Origin: an uncultured Acidimicrobiales bacterium
GTDB lineage: Bacteria; Actinomycetota; Acidimicrobiia; Acidimicrobiales; SZUA-35
Assembly (NCBI GenBank): GCA_938021675.1
Contig: CALIFY010000014.1
Location: 34,726-98,725 of the forward strand
Direction: 5' to 3'
Length of the DNA: 64,000 nt
The position numbers and the translations under genes are program-made. This document shows positions 31,801 to 40,995 of this stretch, piece by piece. The notes under the pieces were generated by a model. The model did not search any database and was not told where the DNA came from. It saw nothing but the letters and a program-made list of their open reading frames with translations. The first letter of the stretch is position 1. Each line of letters begins with the position of its first letter.

Positions 31801-32562
31801 CTACACGAGCGGCCAGGGCCAGCGGTGTCCGCCGGTGTCGTCGGCAGGGAACTGCCCTATCTCAAGAAGCGCCGTGGTTCGAGTCATCATGGCGTCGGTT
31901 TCGAACGGATCGAGAAGCGAGGTCAACTCGTCGGGCGGACCGGTTTCGACGAACTCGGCGAGAGCGGTACGGATCGGTTCGGGAAGTGGGTCGCCGACGT
32001 AATCCCACAGAACGGTCCGAAGCTTGAATTGCGCGTGGAACGACAGTCCGTGATCGATGCCATACACCCGGCCGTCACGACCGAGAAGACAATGGCCAGA
32101 TTTTCGGTCGGTGTTATTGGCGATCACGTCGAGCGTGCACAGCCGCTCAAGGTCGGATCGACCGATACCGCTCTCACGCAGAGTGAAATAGTGCTGGTCG
32201 AAGTCGGCGTCGACGAACGCTTGAATCGACCCCTCACCAAAGGGTCCGTCGGCAAGCGCGGTCGGTGGTACGACATCCCACCCGAGGGCGTCGGATAGTC
32301 GAAACATCGCAACTTCGCGCCGGAACAGGTCGCCGGGAAAATCCCATAGCGGGCGTTCGCCCCGGCCGGGCTTGTAGATCGCAGGATGGGTGCGGTCTGC
32401 GGTGTCGGTGACCGTTACCAGCAAGGTGGCGTTTGAGCTGTCCGCCATCCTGGCTTCGACCACGATCTCACCGGTCTGGAACAGGTCGATCAACTCGTCG
32501 GCCGGAAGATCGAACGCACTCTCGGTCGACTCGTTTGGTCCGTCGGAGCCGTCGTCGTCCAT
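31801..32562 (-). CDS. SCO1664-family protein (PI3/4-kinase-like fold)
   Basis: AIYKPGRGERPLWDFP...GSIQAFVDAD...DVIANNTDRKSGHCLL...YGIDHGLSFH. The start is set at ATG 32562, which shares one nt with the DUF3090 stop (TGATG). Confidence 0.7.
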   Translation of the reverse strand: MDDDGSDGPNESTESAFDLPADELIDLFQTGEIVVEARMADSSNATLLVTVTDTADRTHPAIYKPGRGERPLWDFPGDLFRREVAMFRLSDALGWDVVPPTALADGPFGEGSIQAFVDADFDQHYFTLRESGIGRSDLERLCTLDVIANNTDRKSGHCLLGRDGRVYGIDHGLSFHAQFKLRTVLWDYVGDPLPEPIRTALAEFVETGPPDELTSLLDPFETDAMMTRTTALLEIGQFPADDTGGHRWPWPLV

Positions 32563-33074
32563 CAGTTCAGACGAGGGCAGGAGTGGCCTTCCGGATCGAG
32601 TGGTTGACCGCAGAGGCGGCATGGGGGCCGGCCCTTGGTCATCAGCTCGTTTGACATGGCGACAAAGCCGGCTGCTTGGTCGGCACGGACGTGAGCCCGG
32701 ATCTTGCCGCCATCGGACTCGCCGAACAGCATGGCGTCCTCTTCGTCGGCCTCATCATCGGGCTGTTGTTCTTGAATCACGATGACAACCTCGCCATCGG
32801 CTTCGTCGAGCCCGACCGCTATCTGGCCCACCGTCCACTCGGCAACGGTCGGTTCGATAAGTGGCTGGGCTTCCGGGGGAACGTCGACCGACGGGAGGTC
32901 GTCTAGGGCTCCCTTGAGATATTGGGCGAGGGCGCGAACCTGCTGCTTTTCAAGCCGCACCGTCACGGTGGCCTCCTCGTCGCCGAGCTGAAGGTAGAAC
33001 ACCCGTTGACCGGGTTCGCCAATGGCTCCGGCCGTGAAGTGGGTGACGTTTCTAAACTCGAAGGAATCGCTCAT
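32562..33074 (-). CDS. DUF3090 family protein
   Basis: FTAGAIGEPGQRVFYLQ and the C-terminal Cys/His motif PPCRLCGQPLDPEGHSCPRLN. Confidence 0.75.
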   Translation of the reverse strand: MSDSFEFRNVTHFTAGAIGEPGQRVFYLQLGDEEATVTVRLEKQQVRALAQYLKGALDDLPSVDVPPEAQPLIEPTVAEWTVGQIAVGLDEADGEVVIVIQEQQPDDEADEEDAMLFGESDGGKIRAHVRADQAAGFVAMSNELMTKGRPPCRLCGQPLDPEGHSCPRLN

Positions 33075-33089
33075 ACCAATCCCGGAACC

Positions 33090-33743
33090 TCAGCTGGGAA
33101 CCAGCGCTTGTAAATCATCGCCCATCGAATTCACACCGAGCACTATCGGACCCCCAAATCCGTAGGTGATGACCGAAACAGAGCATGGGCCGACCACGAT
33201 CCGTTGGAACAGGTCGAGGTGGGTGCCGAGCGCATCGGCCACAACAGCCTTGATCGGATCGGCGTGTGACACCACGACGATCTTCTGACCGGGGTGCTCG
33301 CCAACAAGTTTGTGGATGGTGCCCACGATCCGTTGCTGCATTTCGGAAAACGATTCGCCGTCGGGGAACCGAAACCCGCTCGGGTAGTTCTGAACCCGTT
33401 GCCACTCCGCCAGTTTCGAAAGGTCCCCGAGTTTCCGTCCCGTCCAGCGACCGAAGTCGGCTTCGAGCAGACCTTTGTTGACCTTCACTTTCTGGCCGAG
33501 GGCGGCGGCGATGGGGGCTGCGGTCTCCCGCGTACGTTCCATAGGCGAGGCGTAGACCGCTGCAATCGATCGCTTTCCGATGGCCGCGATCCGCTCTGCC
33601 GCTCGTTCGGCCTGGGCCACGCCTTCATCGGCTAGGTGTAGGCCTTTGGCCCGGCCGGGGAGGACCTGCCCGGTCGTCGGAGTGCGGCCGTGGCGGACCA
33701 ACAGCACCGTTGTCGGTTTGCTTTTGGTTGACCGGGCCATCAT
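33090..33743 (-). CDS. Histidine phosphatase superfamily protein (MSMEG_4193-type putative phosphomutase)
   Basis: LLVRHGRT catalytic motif and a later SHADPIK. The gene sits upstream of the DUF3090 and SCO1664-family genes. Confidence 0.75.
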   Translation of the reverse strand: MMARSTKSKPTTVLLVRHGRTPTTGQVLPGRAKGLHLADEGVAQAERAAERIAAIGKRSIAAVYASPMERTRETAAPIAAALGQKVKVNKGLLEADFGRWTGRKLGDLSKLAEWQRVQNYPSGFRFPDGESFSEMQQRIVGTIHKLVGEHPGQKIVVVSHADPIKAVVADALGTHLDLFQRIVVGPCSVSVITYGFGGPIVLGVNSMGDDLQALVPS

Positions 33744-34897: not shown

Positions 34898-36076
34898 ATG
34901 ACCGACGCCACTTCCGCTTCACCCGGCGAGACGACCGTTCCCCAAAAACCCCGTTGGACGTTCCAGTGGAAAGAGCTGTACGACGAGGTCATCACGTCCG
35001 GGTTGTGCACCGGCTGCGCGGGGTGCGTGATCGCCTGCCCGCACGACGTGATCGGCTACGAACACAAACCGGGGGCGTATACCCCATTTCACTTGGAAGA
35101 AGAGTTGGGGCTGGCCAACTGTGTGCACGGTGAAAAGGGCTGCACCTCGTGCACCAGGGCGTGCCCCCGTTTCCGGTCTTGGGAGACCGAAGCCGATGAA
35201 CACCTCTTCGGACGGGTGAGAGAGCCGAGCGAAAAGTCGGGCATCTACAAAGACATCCTCCTCGTGCGGGCAACCGACGATCGGATTTACGAGAATGGCC
35301 AGGACGGTGGGTTGGTGTCGGCCATCCTGATTTGGTGCCTTGAGAACGACATCATCGATGGTGCGTTGGTGTCGATGTTGGAAGGGGGTGCCGGCGGCTG
35401 GAAAGCGATCCCCGGGGTGGCTACCAATATCGAAGAAGTTATGGCATCGGCCGGTAGCCGGTATACCTACTCGGCCAACACCATGGCGTTCGACGAGGCC
35501 CGAGACCGGGGCTTGGACAAACTGGCGCTCGTCGGGATGAGCTGCCAAACATCGATTGGCCCGGTGATGTGGCACCGAAAGGTGGGGAAGGTCTCGAAAC
35601 CCATCAAACTCAACATCGGGTTGTTGTGCTCAAAGTCGTTCGATGACTCGATGTTCGACGAACTTTTCTATTACAAATATGGGCTGGCCAAAGACGACAT
35701 CGTAAAGATGAATATCAAGGGGGTGTTCCAGGTATGGATGCGAAACGGCGACTACCACGAGATCAACCTTAAGGAATGCCACGCTTGGACACGAGAAGGG
35801 TGCAATCATTGCCCCGACTTTGCTGCTGAACATGCCGACATTTCCACCGGGGGCATCGGAAACGAGACGGACTGGACGTTGACTGTGGTTCGAACTGACC
35901 TGGGTCGGGCCGTCATCGATGCCATGATCACCGACGGCGTGGTCGAGACCCGACCCGGTGACGATGATCCGGCGGCTATAGCGCTCATGCACCGCCTGGC
36001 CGAGAAGAGCAGGCAGCGATGGCCGGCGTGGGCAAACGGCGAAGCGCGGGTTGGTCTGTCGCCGAAGAAGGCGTAG
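34898..36076 (+). CDS. FrhB/FdhB-family (coenzyme F420 hydrogenase/dehydrogenase beta subunit-like) Fe-S flavoprotein
   Basis: N-terminal ferredoxin-like CTGCAGCVIACP. The C-terminal region has CNHCPDFAAEHADISTGG, typical of the FrhB C-terminal domain. The start was moved to ATG 34898. Confidence 0.65.
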   Translation: MTDATSASPGETTVPQKPRWTFQWKELYDEVITSGLCTGCAGCVIACPHDVIGYEHKPGAYTPFHLEEELGLANCVHGEKGCTSCTRACPRFRSWETEADEHLFGRVREPSEKSGIYKDILLVRATDDRIYENGQDGGLVSAILIWCLENDIIDGALVSMLEGGAGGWKAIPGVATNIEEVMASAGSRYTYSANTMAFDEARDRGLDKLALVGMSCQTSIGPVMWHRKVGKVSKPIKLNIGLLCSKSFDDSMFDELFYYKYGLAKDDIVKMNIKGVFQVWMRNGDYHEINLKECHAWTREGCNHCPDFAAEHADISTGGIGNETDWTLTVVRTDLGRAVIDAMITDGVVETRPGDDDPAAIALMHRLAEKSRQRWPAWANGEARVGLSPKKA

Positions 36077-36102
36077 CGGCTGCCGGTCGTCGTCGGGCTG
36101 GG

Positions 36103-36759
36103 TTAGCCCTCGGCCGGCTGGCCGACGATCGCCGTGATCTCGGCAACGTCGCCGTTTTGGATGGCGTTTCCTGCTCGGCCTTTTGCCTCGAATTCTGAGG
36201 CATTCCACTCTTCGGCGAGGGCGAGGAGTTGTTCGTAGTTGTAGCCGGCGTCCCAGTATGCAGCGTAGGCGTCGAGGTCATCCTCGTTCCAGCCGTCGGG
36301 AGTCGCCGTCGGGGGTTGGCCGACGATCGCCGTGATCTCTGCCATGTCGCCGTTTTGGATGGCGTTTCCTGCGCGGCCTTTTGCTTCGAATTGTGAGGTG
36401 TTCCATTCTTCGGCGAGGGCGAGGAGTTGTTCGTGGTTGTAGCCGGCGTCCAGGTATGCGGCGTAGGCGTCGAGGTCATCCTCGTTCCAGCCGCTCATCG
36501 GGTCGATACTCGTTGGGGTCGAGGATCCGGTACCGGAGTCCTCGTTGACGGTCGGTGGTTCGTTAGGAGCGGCTGGCTCGGTTGTTATCGTCGGCTCAGA
36601 CGCCAGGGTGACGCCGGCAAAGCCAACACCGACCACGGTCACCGCGGCAACGGCGCCGTAGGTCAGACGTTGCCGGCTCCGGCGACGTCTGGCATCGATG
36701 TCATAGATCTCTTCGAGGCTTGGCGGCGGTAGTTCGGTGTTGTCGGCAGGTCGTATCAT
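36103..36759 (-). CDS. Membrane-anchored protein with 2 x ~60-aa novel repeat module; putative anti-sigma/sensor partner of the adjacent ECF sigma
   Basis: The ATG overlaps the sigma stop (ATGA). The cytoplasmic tail is about 30 aa. One TM helix (LTYGAVAAVTVVGVGFAGVTLA), a Pro/Thr linker, then two copies of GWNEDDLDAYAAY.DAGYN.EQLLALAEEWN.S.FEAKGRAGNAIQNGD.AEITAIVGQP. No classical anti-sigma domain was recognised. Confidence 0.65.
   Translation of the reverse strand: MIRPADNTELPPPSLEEIYDIDARRRRSRQRLTYGAVAAVTVVGVGFAGVTLASEPTITTEPAAPNEPPTVNEDSGTGSSTPTSIDPMSGWNEDDLDAYAAYLDAGYNHEQLLALAEEWNTSQFEAKGRAGNAIQNGDMAEITAIVGQPPTATPDGWNEDDLDAYAAYWDAGYNYEQLLALAEEWNASEFEAKGRAGNAIQNGDVAEITAIVGQPAEG
36115..36492 (-). 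repeat. Two tandem ~180-bp coding repeats (period 198 bp), paralogous to 38357..38782
   Basis: Copies at 36115..36294 and 36313..36492. There are long identical DNA runs with the second locus, for example the 36-mer gaggagttgttcgtagttgtagccggcgtcccagta at 36223..36258 and at 38474..38509. Confidence 0.9.
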
Positions 36760-37280
36760 CGCTGCTCTTCCTCTTCGGCCGTAAGTGCATCTCGTAGTCG
36801 TCGTCTTGCGTTGCTTAGCGTGGCCGAAGCTGAGCCGGCGCTGGTGTTCATCTGCGCCGCCACCTCGGCCTCCGACAGTTCGTCCCAGTAACGCAGTTGT
36901 ACGGCGGTCCGCATCCGATCTGGAAGATCGTTGACCAATTCGACAACCGAATCGAGCCCGTGGCCTTGGATGGCGATGTCTGGCTCATCGATCTTCGTTG
37001 GCAAGCGGCCTTGTTCGATCTTGGCGATAGCCCGTTTCTCGATTTGTCTTCGTCGCCACGCTCGTCGGGAGAGATTGATAGCGGTACGAAAAACCCAGCC
37101 CTCGGGCGACTCCATCCGACCAACACGGCGCCACTTGGCATACGCCCGGGCAAAGGCCTCGGCCGCGAGCTCGCGACCGAGTACCGGGTCGCCGACCTGC
37201 TGGGCGATGCGCCTTGATAGTGGCTCGGCAACATCGGCGTACCAGCTCTCGAATGAGAGTTCGCCATCCGAAGGGGTCAT
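36756..37280 (-). CDS. ECF (sigma-70 family group 4) sigma factor
   Basis: Region 2 (ELAAEAFARAYAKWRRV...GWVFRTAINLSRRAWRRR) and region 4 (DLPDRMRTAVQLRYWDELSEAEVAAQMNTSAGSASATLSNARRRLRDAL). 174 aa. Confidence 0.85.
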   Translation of the reverse strand: MTPSDGELSFESWYADVAEPLSRRIAQQVGDPVLGRELAAEAFARAYAKWRRVGRMESPEGWVFRTAINLSRRAWRRRQIEKRAIAKIEQGRLPTKIDEPDIAIQGHGLDSVVELVNDLPDRMRTAVQLRYWDELSEAEVAAQMNTSAGSASATLSNARRRLRDALTAEEEEQR

Positions 37281-37294
37281 CGGTTCGAGATGAT

Positions 37295-38326
37295 TTACGG
37301 TAGAGCTCGTTTGAGTTCCTCCAAGCCGGCAAGGATCTGTCCAGGGTTGTCGGCGCCGGGCAGGATCCGGATCTCGACGGTGTCCTTAGTTCGAGCGCCC
37401 TTCCTGAGGTTGACGAGGTTCAGATCGCAATACTTGGTCAGCGGAATGGTGCGCAGCCACATCAGCACCTCAGGCCAGGACCGATCGGTGAAACCCGGTT
37501 GACGGACACCATCGACCAACTCTGGGGGTAACGGCGATAACCGACGGCAAGCCTGGTTAGTGCCGAGCGTAGACCACAGCGCATCACGTTCAGAGAATAA
37601 CTCGATCAATCGGGCCAGAGCCGGCGCGGTTCGAAACGGCTCCGCGTCGAGATGGATATGAACCGCAGCCTCGGCTGGGATCGTGAATCCAAGATCTCTG
37701 GCCGGGCCGAGCAAGGCTTCGAGTGCGTCCTCGAAGCTGCCGGTCAGCGGCGGGGTGACGATCTCGCAGACCCGCTCTCGTTCGCCACCTTGGGGAGCAA
37801 TCATTGCGATGGTGTCGCCACCTCGATCGTCGAGGCGGAATCGGTTCCCGTCAAGAGCTTCCACCGCCGAGCCGAACGCAGCCGCCATTGGTCCTAGCAT
37901 CGACTCGGCGGATGCGGTCGGGTCACAGATTTGTTGTGCCAACCGAAGGAGGCGGGGTTCATCACTCAGGATCCGAAACCACCCCGGCTCCGGCATTTTG
38001 TGGATGTCGAGATCGGTGTTGATCGTGACGTCATCGACGAGCCGACAACGCATCGCACCGTTGGCCTCGTCAACTTCAAACCCACGGGTGAGGTGATGAA
38101 AAACTGGACGGCCTTCCACCAACGATGGTTCGGCATCGTGGTGGAAGACCGTCCTGATCGACCCTCCACACTGTTCGGCGAACTCTTCGGCCAGCGTGTG
38201 CCGGCTGGCACCGGACGGTGCGAGAAGTTCGACCTCGAACCCCAGCCGGTCCCAATGGCCGGTACGGGCTGGGTGGTCCGACCATGTGACGGTGTCGGAC
38301 TGGCGTGGAGTGTCAGATGTTGCCAT
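37295..38326 (-). CDS. Amidoligase_2-type (glutamine-synthetase-like COOH-NH2 ligase fold) enzyme, substrate unknown
   Basis: Ordered motifs match the putative-amidoligase family as I recall it: LGFEVELLAP (GxExE strand), VCEIVTPPLTG, AAVHIHLDA, KYCDLNLVNL, TVEIRILPGADN. No signal peptide or TM helix. Confidence 0.6.
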   Translation of the reverse strand: MATSDTPRQSDTVTWSDHPARTGHWDRLGFEVELLAPSGASRHTLAEEFAEQCGGSIRTVFHHDAEPSLVEGRPVFHHLTRGFEVDEANGAMRCRLVDDVTINTDLDIHKMPEPGWFRILSDEPRLLRLAQQICDPTASAESMLGPMAAAFGSAVEALDGNRFRLDDRGGDTIAMIAPQGGERERVCEIVTPPLTGSFEDALEALLGPARDLGFTIPAEAAVHIHLDAEPFRTAPALARLIELFSERDALWSTLGTNQACRRLSPLPPELVDGVRQPGFTDRSWPEVLMWLRTIPLTKYCDLNLVNLRKGARTKDTVEIRILPGADNPGQILAGLEELKRALP

Positions 38327-38344
38327 GTGGGTGTGGGATATGGG

Positions 38345-38923
38345 TCAGCCGTTGGCCGGTTGGCCGACGATTGCGGTGATTTCGGTGATTTCTGTGGTGT
38401 CGCCGTCTTGGATGGCGTTTCCTGCTCGGCCTTTTGCTTCGAATTCTGAGGTGTTCCATTCTTCGGCGAGGGTGAGGAGTTGTTCGTAGTTGTAGCCGGC
38501 GTCCCAGTACGCGGTGTATGCGTCGAGGTCGTCTTCGTTCCAGCCGTCGGGGGTGTCGGGTGGTGGGGGTTGGTCCGGTCCTGCTGGTTGGCCGACGATT
38601 GCGGTGATTGCGTTGATTTCTGTGGTGTTGCCGTCTTGGATGGCGATGCCCGCTCGAGCCTTCGCCTCGAAGTTCGACGTGTTCCATTCGATGGCAAGAG
38701 CCTCAAGCTGTTCGAAGCTATAGCCGGCCATCCAAAAGGCCGCGTAGGCATCGAGCGTGGCCTGATCGATATCCATGCCCTCCACGTTGATGAGAGGGGC
38801 CGGGTTCTTGGCGGTTGGCGTGTCGTCGGGAGTTTGGGCCAGTGCCAGACCGGAAACCGCACCGGCGACGGGAAAGGCCAGTGCTGAGGCAGCGGCGAAC
38901 TTCAGCTTTTTGGAATTGAGCAT
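38345..38923 (-). CDS. Secreted protein with 2 x the same ~60-aa novel repeat module
   Basis: Sec-type signal MLNSKKLKFAAASALAFPVAGAVSGLALA|QTPDD (start set at ATG 38923, SD gaagga). It carries two modules homologous to those of 36103..36759. Confidence 0.7.
   Translation of the reverse strand: MLNSKKLKFAAASALAFPVAGAVSGLALAQTPDDTPTAKNPAPLINVEGMDIDQATLDAYAAFWMAGYSFEQLEALAIEWNTSNFEAKARAGIAIQDGNTTEINAITAIVGQPAGPDQPPPPDTPDGWNEDDLDAYTAYWDAGYNYEQLLTLAEEWNTSEFEAKGRAGNAIQDGDTTEITEITAIVGQPANG
38357..38782 (-). repeat. Two tandem coding repeats paralogous to 36115..36492
   Basis: Copies at 38357..38545 (close to the 36-kb copies) and 38585..38782 (more diverged). There is a 9-bp EIT duplication in copy 2. 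Confidence 0.9.
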
Positions 38924-39012
38924 TGGCAGCGGTCCTTCTGTAGGGAACACCTAAAGAAGCCTCAGATGCATCGGTTCCCTTAGCCGCGGCCGGATTATTC
39001 TGATGGTTGTCG

Positions 39013-40341
39013 CTACTCGTTGGCCGTGGCGACGATCGGGGAGGTGGCGGCGGTAATGACCGAGCCGGTCTCCGAGGCGAACGCGGTGGTGACGCCGATC
39101 GGGGTGCCATCTACTCGTTCACCGAGATGGTTCGTTACCTGGCAGGTGCCATCGTCGTTGATAACCAGAACGGTTCCGCAGTAGTCGGGCATGTCCTCAA
39201 CCGATTCTCCAAGCACGATGAGGCCCATCTCGTTGTTCTGAACCGATTCGTGGGAGAAGCCGGCTCGCTCGAAGTGCAAGAGGCCGTCGGCCAGAGCGAC
39301 GCAGTACCCGGTGCTGTCCGTCGGGAACAGCGACGGCGGAAGTACCGATGTCCACTTCCAATCCTCGACGAGGTTCTTTGATGTGACGATGGAGAATTCG
39401 AGATCGCCGAGCACCGAGAGAGCTGCGAGAGATAGCACCGCCGAGCGAGCGGTAGCCAACGCTGCCGAACGGCTGCCGACAATTCCGAGCGGACCATACA
39501 GCAAGTTGGCGGTCACCGGAACCCAGGGCAAGAAGCTCATGTTCTCGATCGGTTCGTACAGCTCTTCTGGTATCTGCTCAGGCTCGTCGAACCGGGGCTC
39601 CCAGGGAATGGTGCAGTAGGCGACAGCGAAACGGCCGAACAACGGGTGGTCGACGCCCCGTTCCCACAAGCCTGGTTCGAGTCGGCCGAGCCTGGTCCGT
39701 AGTTCCTCGGGATTGGGGTGGAGTAGGCGGTGGCGGTCGGCGGTGGCGTTTCTGGTCTGACGGATCGATTGGAGAAACGCCCAGGCCTGGGCGTTCAATT
39801 CTAGGTCGCTTGTTTCGCTGGTCTGCCGGGAGAACAATGAGCTGAGGAACGAGTCGCGGCCGGACCCGGTCGTCTGTTGGTCTTCGATGAAACTCGGGAC
39901 TTCGATCGCCGGTGTCGGTTGACGGGCCGCTTCGATGGTGGCGACGATCGAAGCGGCTGTGGCCGGTGGGCGGGGAGGGCGCACGGTGAAGCAGGCGCTC
40001 CCGACGTGGAGCACAGACTCACCGATCGGCATGGCTTCGGTCACCGGCGCTTGATCGACGAGTGCGTCGACCGAACCAGGAACCACCATGACGGTGTCAA
40101 CGTCTTGGACCGCCAACGAAAATCCAATGTCCCGGTCGGACTCGCGGAATTGGAACAACCCGGAGTGAAGTGGCATGACGGTTCCAGATGTCAACCCTGC
40201 AACCTGCCGCATCTCGAGCAGCACGTCGGCAGGGGCGCCATCGGTGGTCGCCGCATCGTCGCCGTTTTGAAACGGCGGTGCAGTCGGGTCGAGAGAGAAG
40301 TCATCCATCTCGGGATTGGGTGCGATTGCTGGATCGTTCAT
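39013..40341 (-). CDS. Hypothetical protein: FHA-like beta-rich N-region plus degenerate FtsK/SpoIIIE-like domain (Walker A lysine absent)
   Basis: Start moved to ATG 40341 (MNDPAIAPN...). YGPLGIVGSRSAALATARSAVLSLAA...LEFSIVTSKN...VLPP lines up with the FtsK-family pattern PH.LvAGtTGSGKS...L..l...l.liDpK...lPH, but it lacks the GKS/T. No TM helix was seen. This is pattern recognition only. Confidence 0.4.
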   Translation of the reverse strand: MNDPAIAPNPEMDDFSLDPTAPPFQNGDDAATTDGAPADVLLEMRQVAGLTSGTVMPLHSGLFQFRESDRDIGFSLAVQDVDTVMVVPGSVDALVDQAPVTEAMPIGESVLHVGSACFTVRPPRPPATAASIVATIEAARQPTPAIEVPSFIEDQQTTGSGRDSFLSSLFSRQTSETSDLELNAQAWAFLQSIRQTRNATADRHRLLHPNPEELRTRLGRLEPGLWERGVDHPLFGRFAVAYCTIPWEPRFDEPEQIPEELYEPIENMSFLPWVPVTANLLYGPLGIVGSRSAALATARSAVLSLAALSVLGDLEFSIVTSKNLVEDWKWTSVLPPSLFPTDSTGYCVALADGLLHFERAGFSHESVQNNEMGLIVLGESVEDMPDYCGTVLVINDDGTCQVTNHLGERVDGTPIGVTTAFASETGSVITAATSPIVATANE

Positions 40342-40995
40342 CCAACGGACAATTCTACGCGGTTCTCGAAGCTGATCCTGACCCAGGAGGAACAAGGAGG
40401 GTCGTCGGGGGTGCGCATGGTGTCTAGTCGACCACGAATCGAAACCGGACGGTAATCCTACGGTTGGTGATGACCCGTTCCAGGTGTCGACCCGAGGGGG
40501 TCTATGGCCGGCTTGTCGCCAAGATCGAAGCCCTTCTCGGTCGTGTCGCGTCATACCTAAGTTCGCCATCGGTTGGCAGCCGGCGCCCCGTCTCGCCGGG
40601 CCCGGAAAGCTGCAGCCCCGGCTCATGGCCACGATCTCGAGGGAACCGATCGTGCAGTTAGGGAGGGATGACTCCTGGCAAGGTTTGATGTTTGAGGCCA
40701 ACCGGTGGTGGGAATACTTCATTAGTACGTTCCTGCGAGTCGCCGGTCACGGTAGATGACGGCCACTGCTTGAGTGGTAAGTGCGAGTCGCTAGCGAAAA
40801 ACGAGAACCTGGTAGTTGGAGCCTCAAAGTGACTCTGGCCGTGGATAACGGGCTTCCATCGCAACAGCCGGTTGAACCGTGAAGGCCAACCCAAAAGACC
40901 CGGCCCGTCGGTTTTTGGTACTGGCTCTGTCGAGAAACTCTGGCTGTTGCCCAGATGCTGCCAAGAGCCGAGACGACCCCGAGCAGGAAGTGTAG

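Follow-up and report, generated by a model that had tools for sequence, protein, structure and literature searches.

A widespread helical repeat module encoded beside an uncharacterised clade of amidoligases

Introduction

Enzymes of the glutamine synthetase (GS)-like carboxylate-amine ligase superfamily (GS, GCS2, PafA) join carboxylates to amines. Members of its Amidoligase_2 family are usually encoded next to a GATase-like peptidase or an AIG2 cyclotransferase, as their Pfam description has it. Here, we analyze a 64,000-nucleotide stretch of DNA from an uncultured Acidimicrobiales bacterium (contig CALIFY010000014.1; the whole stretch is called the window hereafter), in which an Amidoligase_2 enzyme and an extracytoplasmic function (ECF) sigma factor are encoded between the genes of a secreted protein, S, and a membrane-anchored protein, A, which together carry four copies of a module of about 60 amino acids. 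The module is a real, widespread and uncatalogued helical repeat domain family, and it is genetically locked to orthologues of the amidoligase, in at least 90% of the loci and in three phyla. It is a new domain family within a familiar signalling architecture, tied to an uncharacterised amidoligase clade.

The window enzyme resembles the superfamily (GS, GCS2/YbdK, PafA/Dop) in its above-threshold score and in its conserved acidic, His and Arg motifs, and the chemistry expected of it would be the ATP-dependent formation of an amide from a carboxylate and an amine. Unlike the wider Amidoligase_2 family, it belongs to a distinct, tightly conserved orthologous group (37–63% identical across phyla), and its fixed neighbour is an exported repeat protein.

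A second comparison is with ECF sigma factors held by single-pass anti-sigma factors (RseA/RseB-sigmaE, and class II systems such as CnrY). The window shares with them a sigma factor that has regions 2 and 4 only and a translationally coupled next gene, and, as in RseA-type systems, that gene encodes a predicted N-in single-pass protein, A, with a variable outside domain, while the operon also encodes an accessory exported protein. Unlike in the RseA/RseB and CnrY systems, the outside domain of A is a new repeat family, the accessory protein is paralogous to the sensor domain, the cytoplasmic tail of A (~31 residues) gives no above-threshold match to a recognised anti-sigma domain, and the system has an obligatory partner in a cytoplasmic amidoligase, which is there also where a taxon lacks the sigma factor.

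Exported repeat proteins that are modified in the cytoplasm by an enzyme encoded next to them are known from the pairs Aah/AIDA-I, TibC/TibA and HMW1C/HMW1. These pairs, LplA/LipB acting on lipoyl domains and the PafA-Pup system resemble the module/amidoligase cassette in combining an adjacent enzyme with a repeat partner, and the lipoyl and Pup systems suggest a further parallel, in that the cassette has one conserved candidate acceptor Lys per repeat, in tandem domains with Ala/Pro-rich linkers. However, the modifiers in those systems are glycosyltransferases or unrelated ligases, and the acceptors are beta-structures or short repeats.

In our tentative reading, which we regard as possible, the modules would bind or sense, outside the cytoplasm, a molecule that depends on the amidoligase, and would feed back through the sigma factor.

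Results

Four copies of the module in the window

A sequence-only reading of the window had proposed four copies of an unrecognised module, and alignment of the translated proteins places them, with matching peptides, on the minus strand:

36115..36294, minus strand: module A2, found by protein alignment; the copy used for structure prediction
36313..36492, minus strand: module A1, found by protein alignment and DNA comparison
38357..38545, minus strand: module S2, found by protein alignment and DNA comparison
38585..38782, minus strand: module S1, the diverged copy, found by protein alignment and DNA comparison; matches the hidden Markov model (HMM) of the family

The copies are 60–66 amino acids long and share 36 invariant columns, and the other three are 92, 87 and 65% identical to A1 at the amino acid level, a likeness far beyond chance. 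All are very acidic (net charge −8 to −12) and Ala-rich. At the DNA level, A1, A2 and S2 are 89–92% identical to each other, and S1 is 67–73% identical to the other three. Identity of ~90% among A1, A2 and S2, in two genes 2 kb apart, indicates that these copies were recently duplicated, or homogenised by gene conversion, in the window genome.

AlphaFold2, run on module A2 (66-residue construct, alignment of 105 sequences; model m9feaa9f2453d), placed helices at residues 7–18, 23–32, 37–49 and 54–60, with a predicted local distance difference test score (pLDDT) of 92.3 and a predicted template modelling score (pTM) of 0.78. In the window lineage, the module is thus confidently predicted to fold as a compact four-helix unit. 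The core of 44 columns found family-wide corresponds to helices 1–3, while the fourth helix (EITAIVGQP) is specific to the window lineage and is replaced in most relatives by an L-P-[VI]-x-P tail. The earlier expectation of a three-helix module was therefore right about its helical nature and about the family at large, and one helix short for the window itself. A single-sequence AlphaFold2 prediction of the whole of S was unusable (pLDDT 43).

Relatives were sought among known sequences, profiles and structures. Pfam-A (2025) gave no match, whether the query was a module protein of the window, one of ten diverse full-length members or one of 105 modules searched individually; across these single modules no family recurred, and the best single E-value was 0.0038. 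NCBIfam r20 gave no significant match to the module, a search of PDB sequences with two module profiles gave none (best E 0.58), and Foldseek with the A2 model returned nothing at E ≤ 0.001 (best PDB hit E 3.9, TM-score 0.40; best BFVD hit E 1.1). With no significant match to a named domain in any of these, "unrecognised" remains an apt description.

UBA, SAP/HeH, PG_binding_1 and homeodomain-like bundles are similar to the module in length (45–60 amino acids), in their three to four short helices and in the Gly-aromatic turn after helix 1. However, such small all-alpha domains gave no sequence or profile match, and the Foldseek hits to UBA (E 9.4), SAP (E 5.2) and homeodomains (E 5.5) are noise (TM-score ≤0.45). 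The idea of a UBA-like module, prompted by its G-Y turn and A-L...N pattern, was unsupported by Pfam and Foldseek. We also rejected a multi-core precursor resembling those of ribosomally synthesized and post-translationally modified peptides (e.g., graspetides): the module is predicted to fold compactly at a pLDDT of 92, the N-terminus is a Sec signal or an anchor, and the enzyme has a GS fold, not an ATP-grasp.

A repeat family with a conserved core and an export signal

An exhaustive HMMER search of 1.84 billion representative proteins with a profile built from the four copies matched 278 protein clusters at E ≤ 1e-3, 89 of them at E ≤ 1e-10, nearly all with 2–9 tandem matches; the family therefore comprises at least 278 clusters, as defined at 50% identity. 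Word-indexed homologue searches with the modules gave nothing, or only three short fragments, and exact look-ups of the proteins encoded in the window gave no record. The statistics below come from the best 150 of the 278 clusters (representatives P0001–P0150), on which the profile was iterated to give 466 domain matches.

Family proteins consist of an export signal, a Pro/Ala-rich linker and tandem modules, with essentially nothing else, and almost always end 3–15 residues past the last module. Two modules occur in 60 of the 150 proteins, three in 31 and four in 41; the range is one to nine, with even copy numbers in excess. In P0005, P0008 and P0013, the two modules within one protein are clearly of different types. 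Every named member is annotated "hypothetical protein".

A signal-peptide-like segment opens 90 of the 150 representatives, and a membrane helix follows a cytoplasmic tail of 30–80 amino acids in another 29, so that 119 have a signal peptide or an N-in membrane anchor; the remainder are mostly fragments. The sequence-only reading had asked whether the module is always extracytoplasmic; it usually is, the probable exception being a cyanobacteria-like subgroup without signal peptide (P0067, P0075, P0088, P0118, P0122 and P0131), whose members start M-A-x-S-D-W-H-P-x-G... and several of which end in Cys. P0010 has nine modules behind a coiled-coil-like N-terminus. This subgroup and P0010 may be cytoplasmic versions of the domain.

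Over 423 aligned modules, the most conserved residues are W (99%), K (97%), L (95%), three Gly (88, 85 and 82%), Y (84%) and D (81%), this Asp being replaced by Q in the window subfamily. The core of ~44 amino acids reads A-[FY]-[FW]-x-[AS]-G-Y-x-Y-x-D-A-x2-L-A-x2-W-x5-[ED]-A-K-x2-A-G-x2-[LI]-L-x-G. A function as a cation or polyamine sponge, or as an EF-hand, was rejected, as 18 of the 150 proteins have a neutral or positive mean module charge and the modules lack a DxDxDG loop.

About 28 of the 150 representatives carry exactly one Cys per module, alternating along the protein between HMM columns 13 and 3 (13>3>13>3); examples are P0042, P0065, P0116, P0117 and P0144 and the proteins of loci L095, L108, L118 and L126 of the scans below. 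This alternation would fit disulfides between successive modules, an oxidising extracytoplasmic location and structural units of two modules, and such units agree with the excess of even copy numbers.

In the window, both module proteins end three residues after the last module, in ...GQPAEG and ...GQPANG, which bears out the C-terminal Gly that had been noted on each. As a family feature it does not hold: 35 of the 150 representatives end in Gly, about twice the frequency in the preceding eight residues (11.7%; p = 6e-5), and 41 end in Pro, exactly at the conserved L-P-[VI]-x-P motif. C-terminal Gly is a tendency and no defining feature of the family. These same counts, and the lack of a GG motif, led us to reject a C-terminal conjugation tag of the ubiquitin or Pup kind.

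The module gene travels with an amidoligase gene

Scanning 185,579 species genomes with a subfamily alignment of 13 modules returned 49 loci, from Kineococcus, Cellulomonas, Actinoplanes, Actinotalea, Kineosporia, Quadrisphaera, metagenome-assembled genomes (MAGs) of Acidimicrobiales, two alphaproteobacteria and one cyanobacterium. Earlier scans of genomes and metagenomes with peptide patterns specific to the window had found no loci, and an alignment of 110 modules was too diverse for pattern design. The open reading frames (ORFs) of each locus were scored with the module HMM and, by phmmer, with the sigma factor and amidoligase sequences of the window.

Of the 49 loci, 46 contain an amidoligase orthologue (phmmer E 1e-65 to 1e-130), which adjoins the module gene in 45 of them; in the remaining one, the cyanobacterial L047, the distance is 7 kb. 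The three that lack an orthologue are contig ends. An ECF sigma factor was found in about 38. The reverse scan, in which an amidoligase alignment was run against metagenome contigs, gave 80 loci, of which 72 have a module ORF beside the amidoligase and 24 have a sigma factor. The pairing thus spans Actinobacteria, Proteobacteria and cyanobacteria, and ECF sigma factors join it in Actinobacteria. All-against-all clustering of the ORFs of the genome loci gave no other conserved neighbour gene. The loci nearest to the window are from MAGs of Acidimicrobiales and Acidimicrobiaceae, the closest being L045 (amidoligase E 3e-130, sigma factor E 8e-62). In L014 (Cellulomonas phragmiteti), two copies of the cassette lie within 10 kb, one complete, with genes for a secreted module protein, the amidoligase, the sigma factor and a membrane module protein, and the other at the locus edge with no secreted module gene detected, so the cassette can be duplicated within one genome. 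We found no description of the module/amidoligase cassette in the literature searched, which did not include Iyer et al. 2009, reportedly the paper that defined these amidoligases.

This linkage bears on the plainest alternative, that the modules are lineage-specific, fast-evolving, acidic low-complexity or structural repeats with no specific function, and that their neighbourhood is coincidental synteny. The acidic, Ala-rich composition and the uniform "hypothetical protein" annotation might suggest as much. Set against it are the confidently predicted compact fold, the position-specific conservation across phyla and the reciprocal linkage to the amidoligase (at least 90%, 129 loci, unrelated taxa). 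We regard this explanation as highly improbable and effectively refuted.

The loci fall into several layouts. Layout (i), that of the window, has genes for a secreted module protein, the amidoligase, the sigma factor and a membrane module protein, in this order. Layout (ii), the commonest actinobacterial layout and that most often seen in Actinoplanes and Kineococcus, has the sigma factor, the membrane module protein and the amidoligase; the ~10 kb flanks examined contain no secreted paralogue. Layout (iib) adds to it a secreted module protein before the amidoligase. In layout (iii), found in Proteobacteria, a periplasmic module protein and the amidoligase stand alone. The order from sigma factor to module protein was found in about 38 genome loci and 24 metagenome loci, the genes of the module protein and the amidoligase often overlap by 4 nucleotides (nt) (e.g., L029, L039, L054 and L063), and nearly all module proteins beside the amidoligase in low-GC and Gram-negative contigs have classical signal peptides.

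The layouts also bear on a homotypic interaction, in which S would bind the modules of A as a co-anti-sigma factor or decoy, as RseB does on RseA, and the amidoligase would be the main member of the regulon without a chemical link to the modules. One operon of the window does encode the same domain in a secreted and a membrane-anchored form; the ~90% DNA identity of A1, A2 and S2 is consistent with concerted evolution of interacting copies, and the predominance of even copy numbers and the alternating Cys suggest packing of module against module. However, most actinobacterial loci have no secreted paralogue, and the link to the amidoligase persists in the proteobacterial loci, which have no anti-sigma form. 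As some loci have only one of the S and A forms, S–A pairing cannot explain the conserved core of the system, and we consider this explanation quite improbable.

The amidoligase and the substrate question

The window amidoligase matches PF12224 over model positions 4–229 of 245 (E 5e-13; 49.9 bits against a cutoff of 22). Across 47 orthologues, 67 residues are at least 95% conserved, including GxExE, RER..E, HxHxD and ExR motifs; judged by these conserved GS-type motifs, the enzyme is intact. Homologues of it number 639, annotated only "amidoligase family protein", and all 120 of those listed carry PF12224. In L089/L091, the amidoligase lies between a gene for a response-regulator/cyclase-like protein, a small Cys-rich membrane protein and a clostripain-like protein.

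An enzyme and its dedicated substrate would be expected to show what is seen here, two genes strictly adjacent across phyla and no other gene conserved with them. On this explanation, the main rival of the binding or sensor reading and one that we judge somewhat unlikely, the modules are dedicated protein substrates of the amidoligase, an amide being formed on each module before export. The most plausible site would be the near-invariant Lys of [ED]-A-K, to which a small carboxylic acid, for instance glutamate, would be joined by acylation; once modified, the repeats would act outside the cell, and on A their modification state would tune the release of the sigma factor. The frequent 4-nt overlaps between the module and amidoligase genes point the same way, as does the 97% conservation of this Lys in 423 modules beside an enzyme whose superfamily joins carboxylates to amines. 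One acceptor per module, in one to nine tandem modules with Ala/Pro-rich linkers, recalls tandem lipoyl domains, and Aah/AIDA-I, TibC/TibA and HMW1C/HMW1 provide precedents. Members without a signal peptide would share a compartment with the enzyme, and C-terminal Gly is about twofold enriched.

On the other side, the enzyme does not share a compartment with the mature substrate: given its Sec-type (KK) signal, S would be exported unfolded, and the Gram-negative forms seem not to fold, with their disulfides, until they have been exported. In layout (ii), no module protein other than the anti-sigma-like one was found in the ~10 kb flanks examined, which would leave an enzyme dedicated to a regulator. 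By helical periodicity, the conserved Lys shares a face of helix 3 with conserved small and hydrophobic residues and could be structural, and no hydrolase or other "eraser" is conserved nearby. The stronger claim, that the amidoligase covalently modifies the near-invariant Lys and that the state of the modules on the anti-sigma factor would be the signal controlling the sigma factor, would make this a protein-modification system new to science, loosely like lipoylation or pupylation but on secreted proteins; drawn by analogy, it appears unlikely to us.

The operon in the window

The operon, with its amidoligase and ECF sigma factor, is the most informative feature of the region and was absent from the sequence-only reading. 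Its four minus-strand genes lie across 36103-38950, separated by gaps of 18 nt and 14 nt and then by a 4-nt overlap, in the order S, amidoligase, sigma factor and A:

38345..38923, minus strand: gene S, 192 amino acids, secreted, two modules, from the ORF list and translation
38837..38923, minus strand: Sec-type signal peptide of S, with MLNSKKLKFAAASALAFPVAGAVSGLALA before and QT after the predicted cleavage site, deduced from the sequence
37295..38326, minus strand: amidoligase, 343 amino acids, cytoplasmic, without signal peptide, by its PF12224 match
36756..37280, minus strand: ECF-type sigma factor, 174 amino acids, by Sigma70_r2, Sigma70_r4_2 and Sigma70_ECF matches
36103..36759, minus strand: gene A, 218 amino acids, membrane-anchored, two modules, anti-sigma-factor-like layout
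36601..36666, minus strand: single transmembrane helix of A, residues ~32-53, LTYGAVAAVTVVGVGFAGVTLA, from a hydropathy scan
38951..38990, minus strand: possible operon promoter region, GGCTAAGGGAAC ... CTTCTTTAGG, common to the window and L045, from visual alignment

The start of S is most likely the ATG at 38923. Read from that codon, S is identical to P0001, the top match of the module profile search, which is called from the same ATG; the GTG at 38950, which opens the longest ORF, is less likely. A ribosome-binding site, AGAAGGA, lies ~10 nt upstream of the start of S. The signal peptide has a Lys-rich (KK) n-region, a hydrophobic stretch (Kyte-Doolittle >1.4 at residues 18–21 of the long ORF) and an A-L-A cleavage motif.

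The sigma factor has sigma-70 regions 2 and 4 only (Sigma70_r2, Sigma70_r4_2 and Sigma70_ECF); in NCBIfam, TIGR02937 scores above its cutoff and TIGR02983 (SigE-fam_strep, E 2.4e-30) below. The start of gene A overlaps the stop codon of the sigma factor gene by 4 nt (ATGA, 36756-36759). The product of gene A begins with 31 cytoplasmic residues, the last of them RRRRSRQR; a single hydrophobic helix follows, then a linker rich in Pro and Thr and the two modules. By the positive-inside rule (RRRRSRQR before the helix), we infer a topology with the N-terminus in and the modules out; the modules would make up the entire exported part of A, as they do of S. By position and topology, A has the layout of an anti-sigma factor and is a putative one. 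The 31-residue tail shares an L-x-PPSL-x2-[IV] motif with L044, and residues 23–77 give a weak, sub-threshold match to the NCBIfam family CU044_5270_fam (E 7e-4; 19 bits against a cutoff of 100). An NCBIfam "lasso_cyano" match at residues 203–214 of A, with E 5e-4 and 20 bits where the cutoff is 33, covers 12 residues and was dismissed as chance.

Upstream of S, the window and L045 have GGCTAAGGGAA...CTTCTT, a version carried by these two sequences only. Ten Cellulomonas-type loci (L002, L008, L014, L021, L027, L031, L034, L037, L041 and L043) have [CG]CACA-N16/17-CG[CA]GT[CT] ~40–70 nt upstream of the first gene. These clade-specific motifs are possible candidates for ECF-dependent, autoregulated promoters. 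A regular-expression test for enrichment of the motif was confounded, as the antisense of the coding sequence for D-A-V-x-L-A-x-L-W in the module fits the pattern too, so the promoter observation comes from visual alignment only.

Several ORFs of 100–300 amino acids overlap the operon genes in 36000-39000, in other frames or on the opposite strand (e.g., 37966-38862, minus strand); they are Arg/Pro-rich shadow ORFs, as expected in high-GC DNA, and no genes. Directly upstream of the operon, an ORF of up to 569 amino acids (39013-40722, minus strand) resembles type VII secretion EccCa/EssC only over the N-terminal part that precedes the ATPase region (TIGR03924, E 3.8e-9, model positions 92–251); it has no ATPase domain and no Pfam match, and it is not kept beside the cassette in other loci. 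At 31801-33743 (minus strand), a DUF3090 protein is encoded together with a protein of the histidine phosphatase family and a PI3/PI4-kinase-like protein. Such a trio is typical of actinobacterial chromosomes and supports a chromosomal rather than mobile-element origin of the window, whose GC content is 59–65% and whose genes are typical of an actinobacterial chromosome. PADLOC gave no match, and a role in anti-phage defence was rejected on that result.

Discussion

We return to the reading of the modules as extracytoplasmic binding or sensor units. The strongest argument for it is layout (ii), where a membrane module protein and the amidoligase, alone with the sigma factor in the ~10 kb flanks examined, read most simply as a sensor and its output enzyme. 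The exported location predicted for the modules, in 119 of the 150 representatives and in nearly all of the Gram-negative neighbours of the amidoligase, counts in its favour, as does the architecture of signal, linker and tandem modules, which resembles that of polymer-binding repeats.

In this scheme, the modules would bind a molecule of the envelope or the medium that the amidoligase is needed to form or modify; one example would be a wall or envelope precursor with a carboxylate, which is amidated in the cytoplasm and leaves by the normal route of envelope export. A ligase that works on such a precursor in the cytoplasm would not require an exporter of its own, and no dedicated exporter was found. 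Tandem copies would give avidity and would probably act in pairs. Occupancy of the modules on A would be transmitted across the membrane, so that the sigma factor is held or released, and the sigma factor would drive the operon, closing a feedback loop on the amidoligase. S would be a soluble or wall-associated copy with the same ligand, serving as a buffer, decoy or co-sensor.

Several observations weigh against the binding or sensor reading. Neighbour clustering showed no transporter or further biosynthetic gene conserved in the cassette, and no ligand emerged. The sigma factor is absent from the proteobacterial loci, and sensing therefore cannot have been the original role. A module gene is missing beside four or five amidoligase orthologues whose flanks are long enough to show one (L089/L091, L103 and L110), at least six complete cyanobacteria-like proteins begin directly with module 1 and have no signal peptide, and no anti-sigma domain was recognised by Pfam in the cytoplasmic tail of A. 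The near-invariant Trp, Lys, Gly and Tyr could be purely structural, and a Lys conserved at 97% beside a carboxylate-amine ligase equally fits an enzyme and its substrate.

Pfam, NCBIfam and PDB lack this domain family, which numbers at least 278 clusters and now has a confident structural model. Around it, a conserved cassette is exposed, which pairs an exported repeat protein with a cytoplasmic GS-fold amidoligase and to which Actinobacteria add an ECF sigma factor and an anti-sigma-like protein. The cassette is present in the cultivable genera Actinoplanes, Cellulomonas, Kineococcus and Kineosporia as well as in environmental metagenomes. Whichever model is right, it gives one clade of the uncharacterised Amidoligase_2 family its first biological context. 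The module is also a putative new sensor domain for ECF signalling, and, if the modules were instead substrates of the amidoligase, the cassette would represent a new post-translational modification of secreted proteins.

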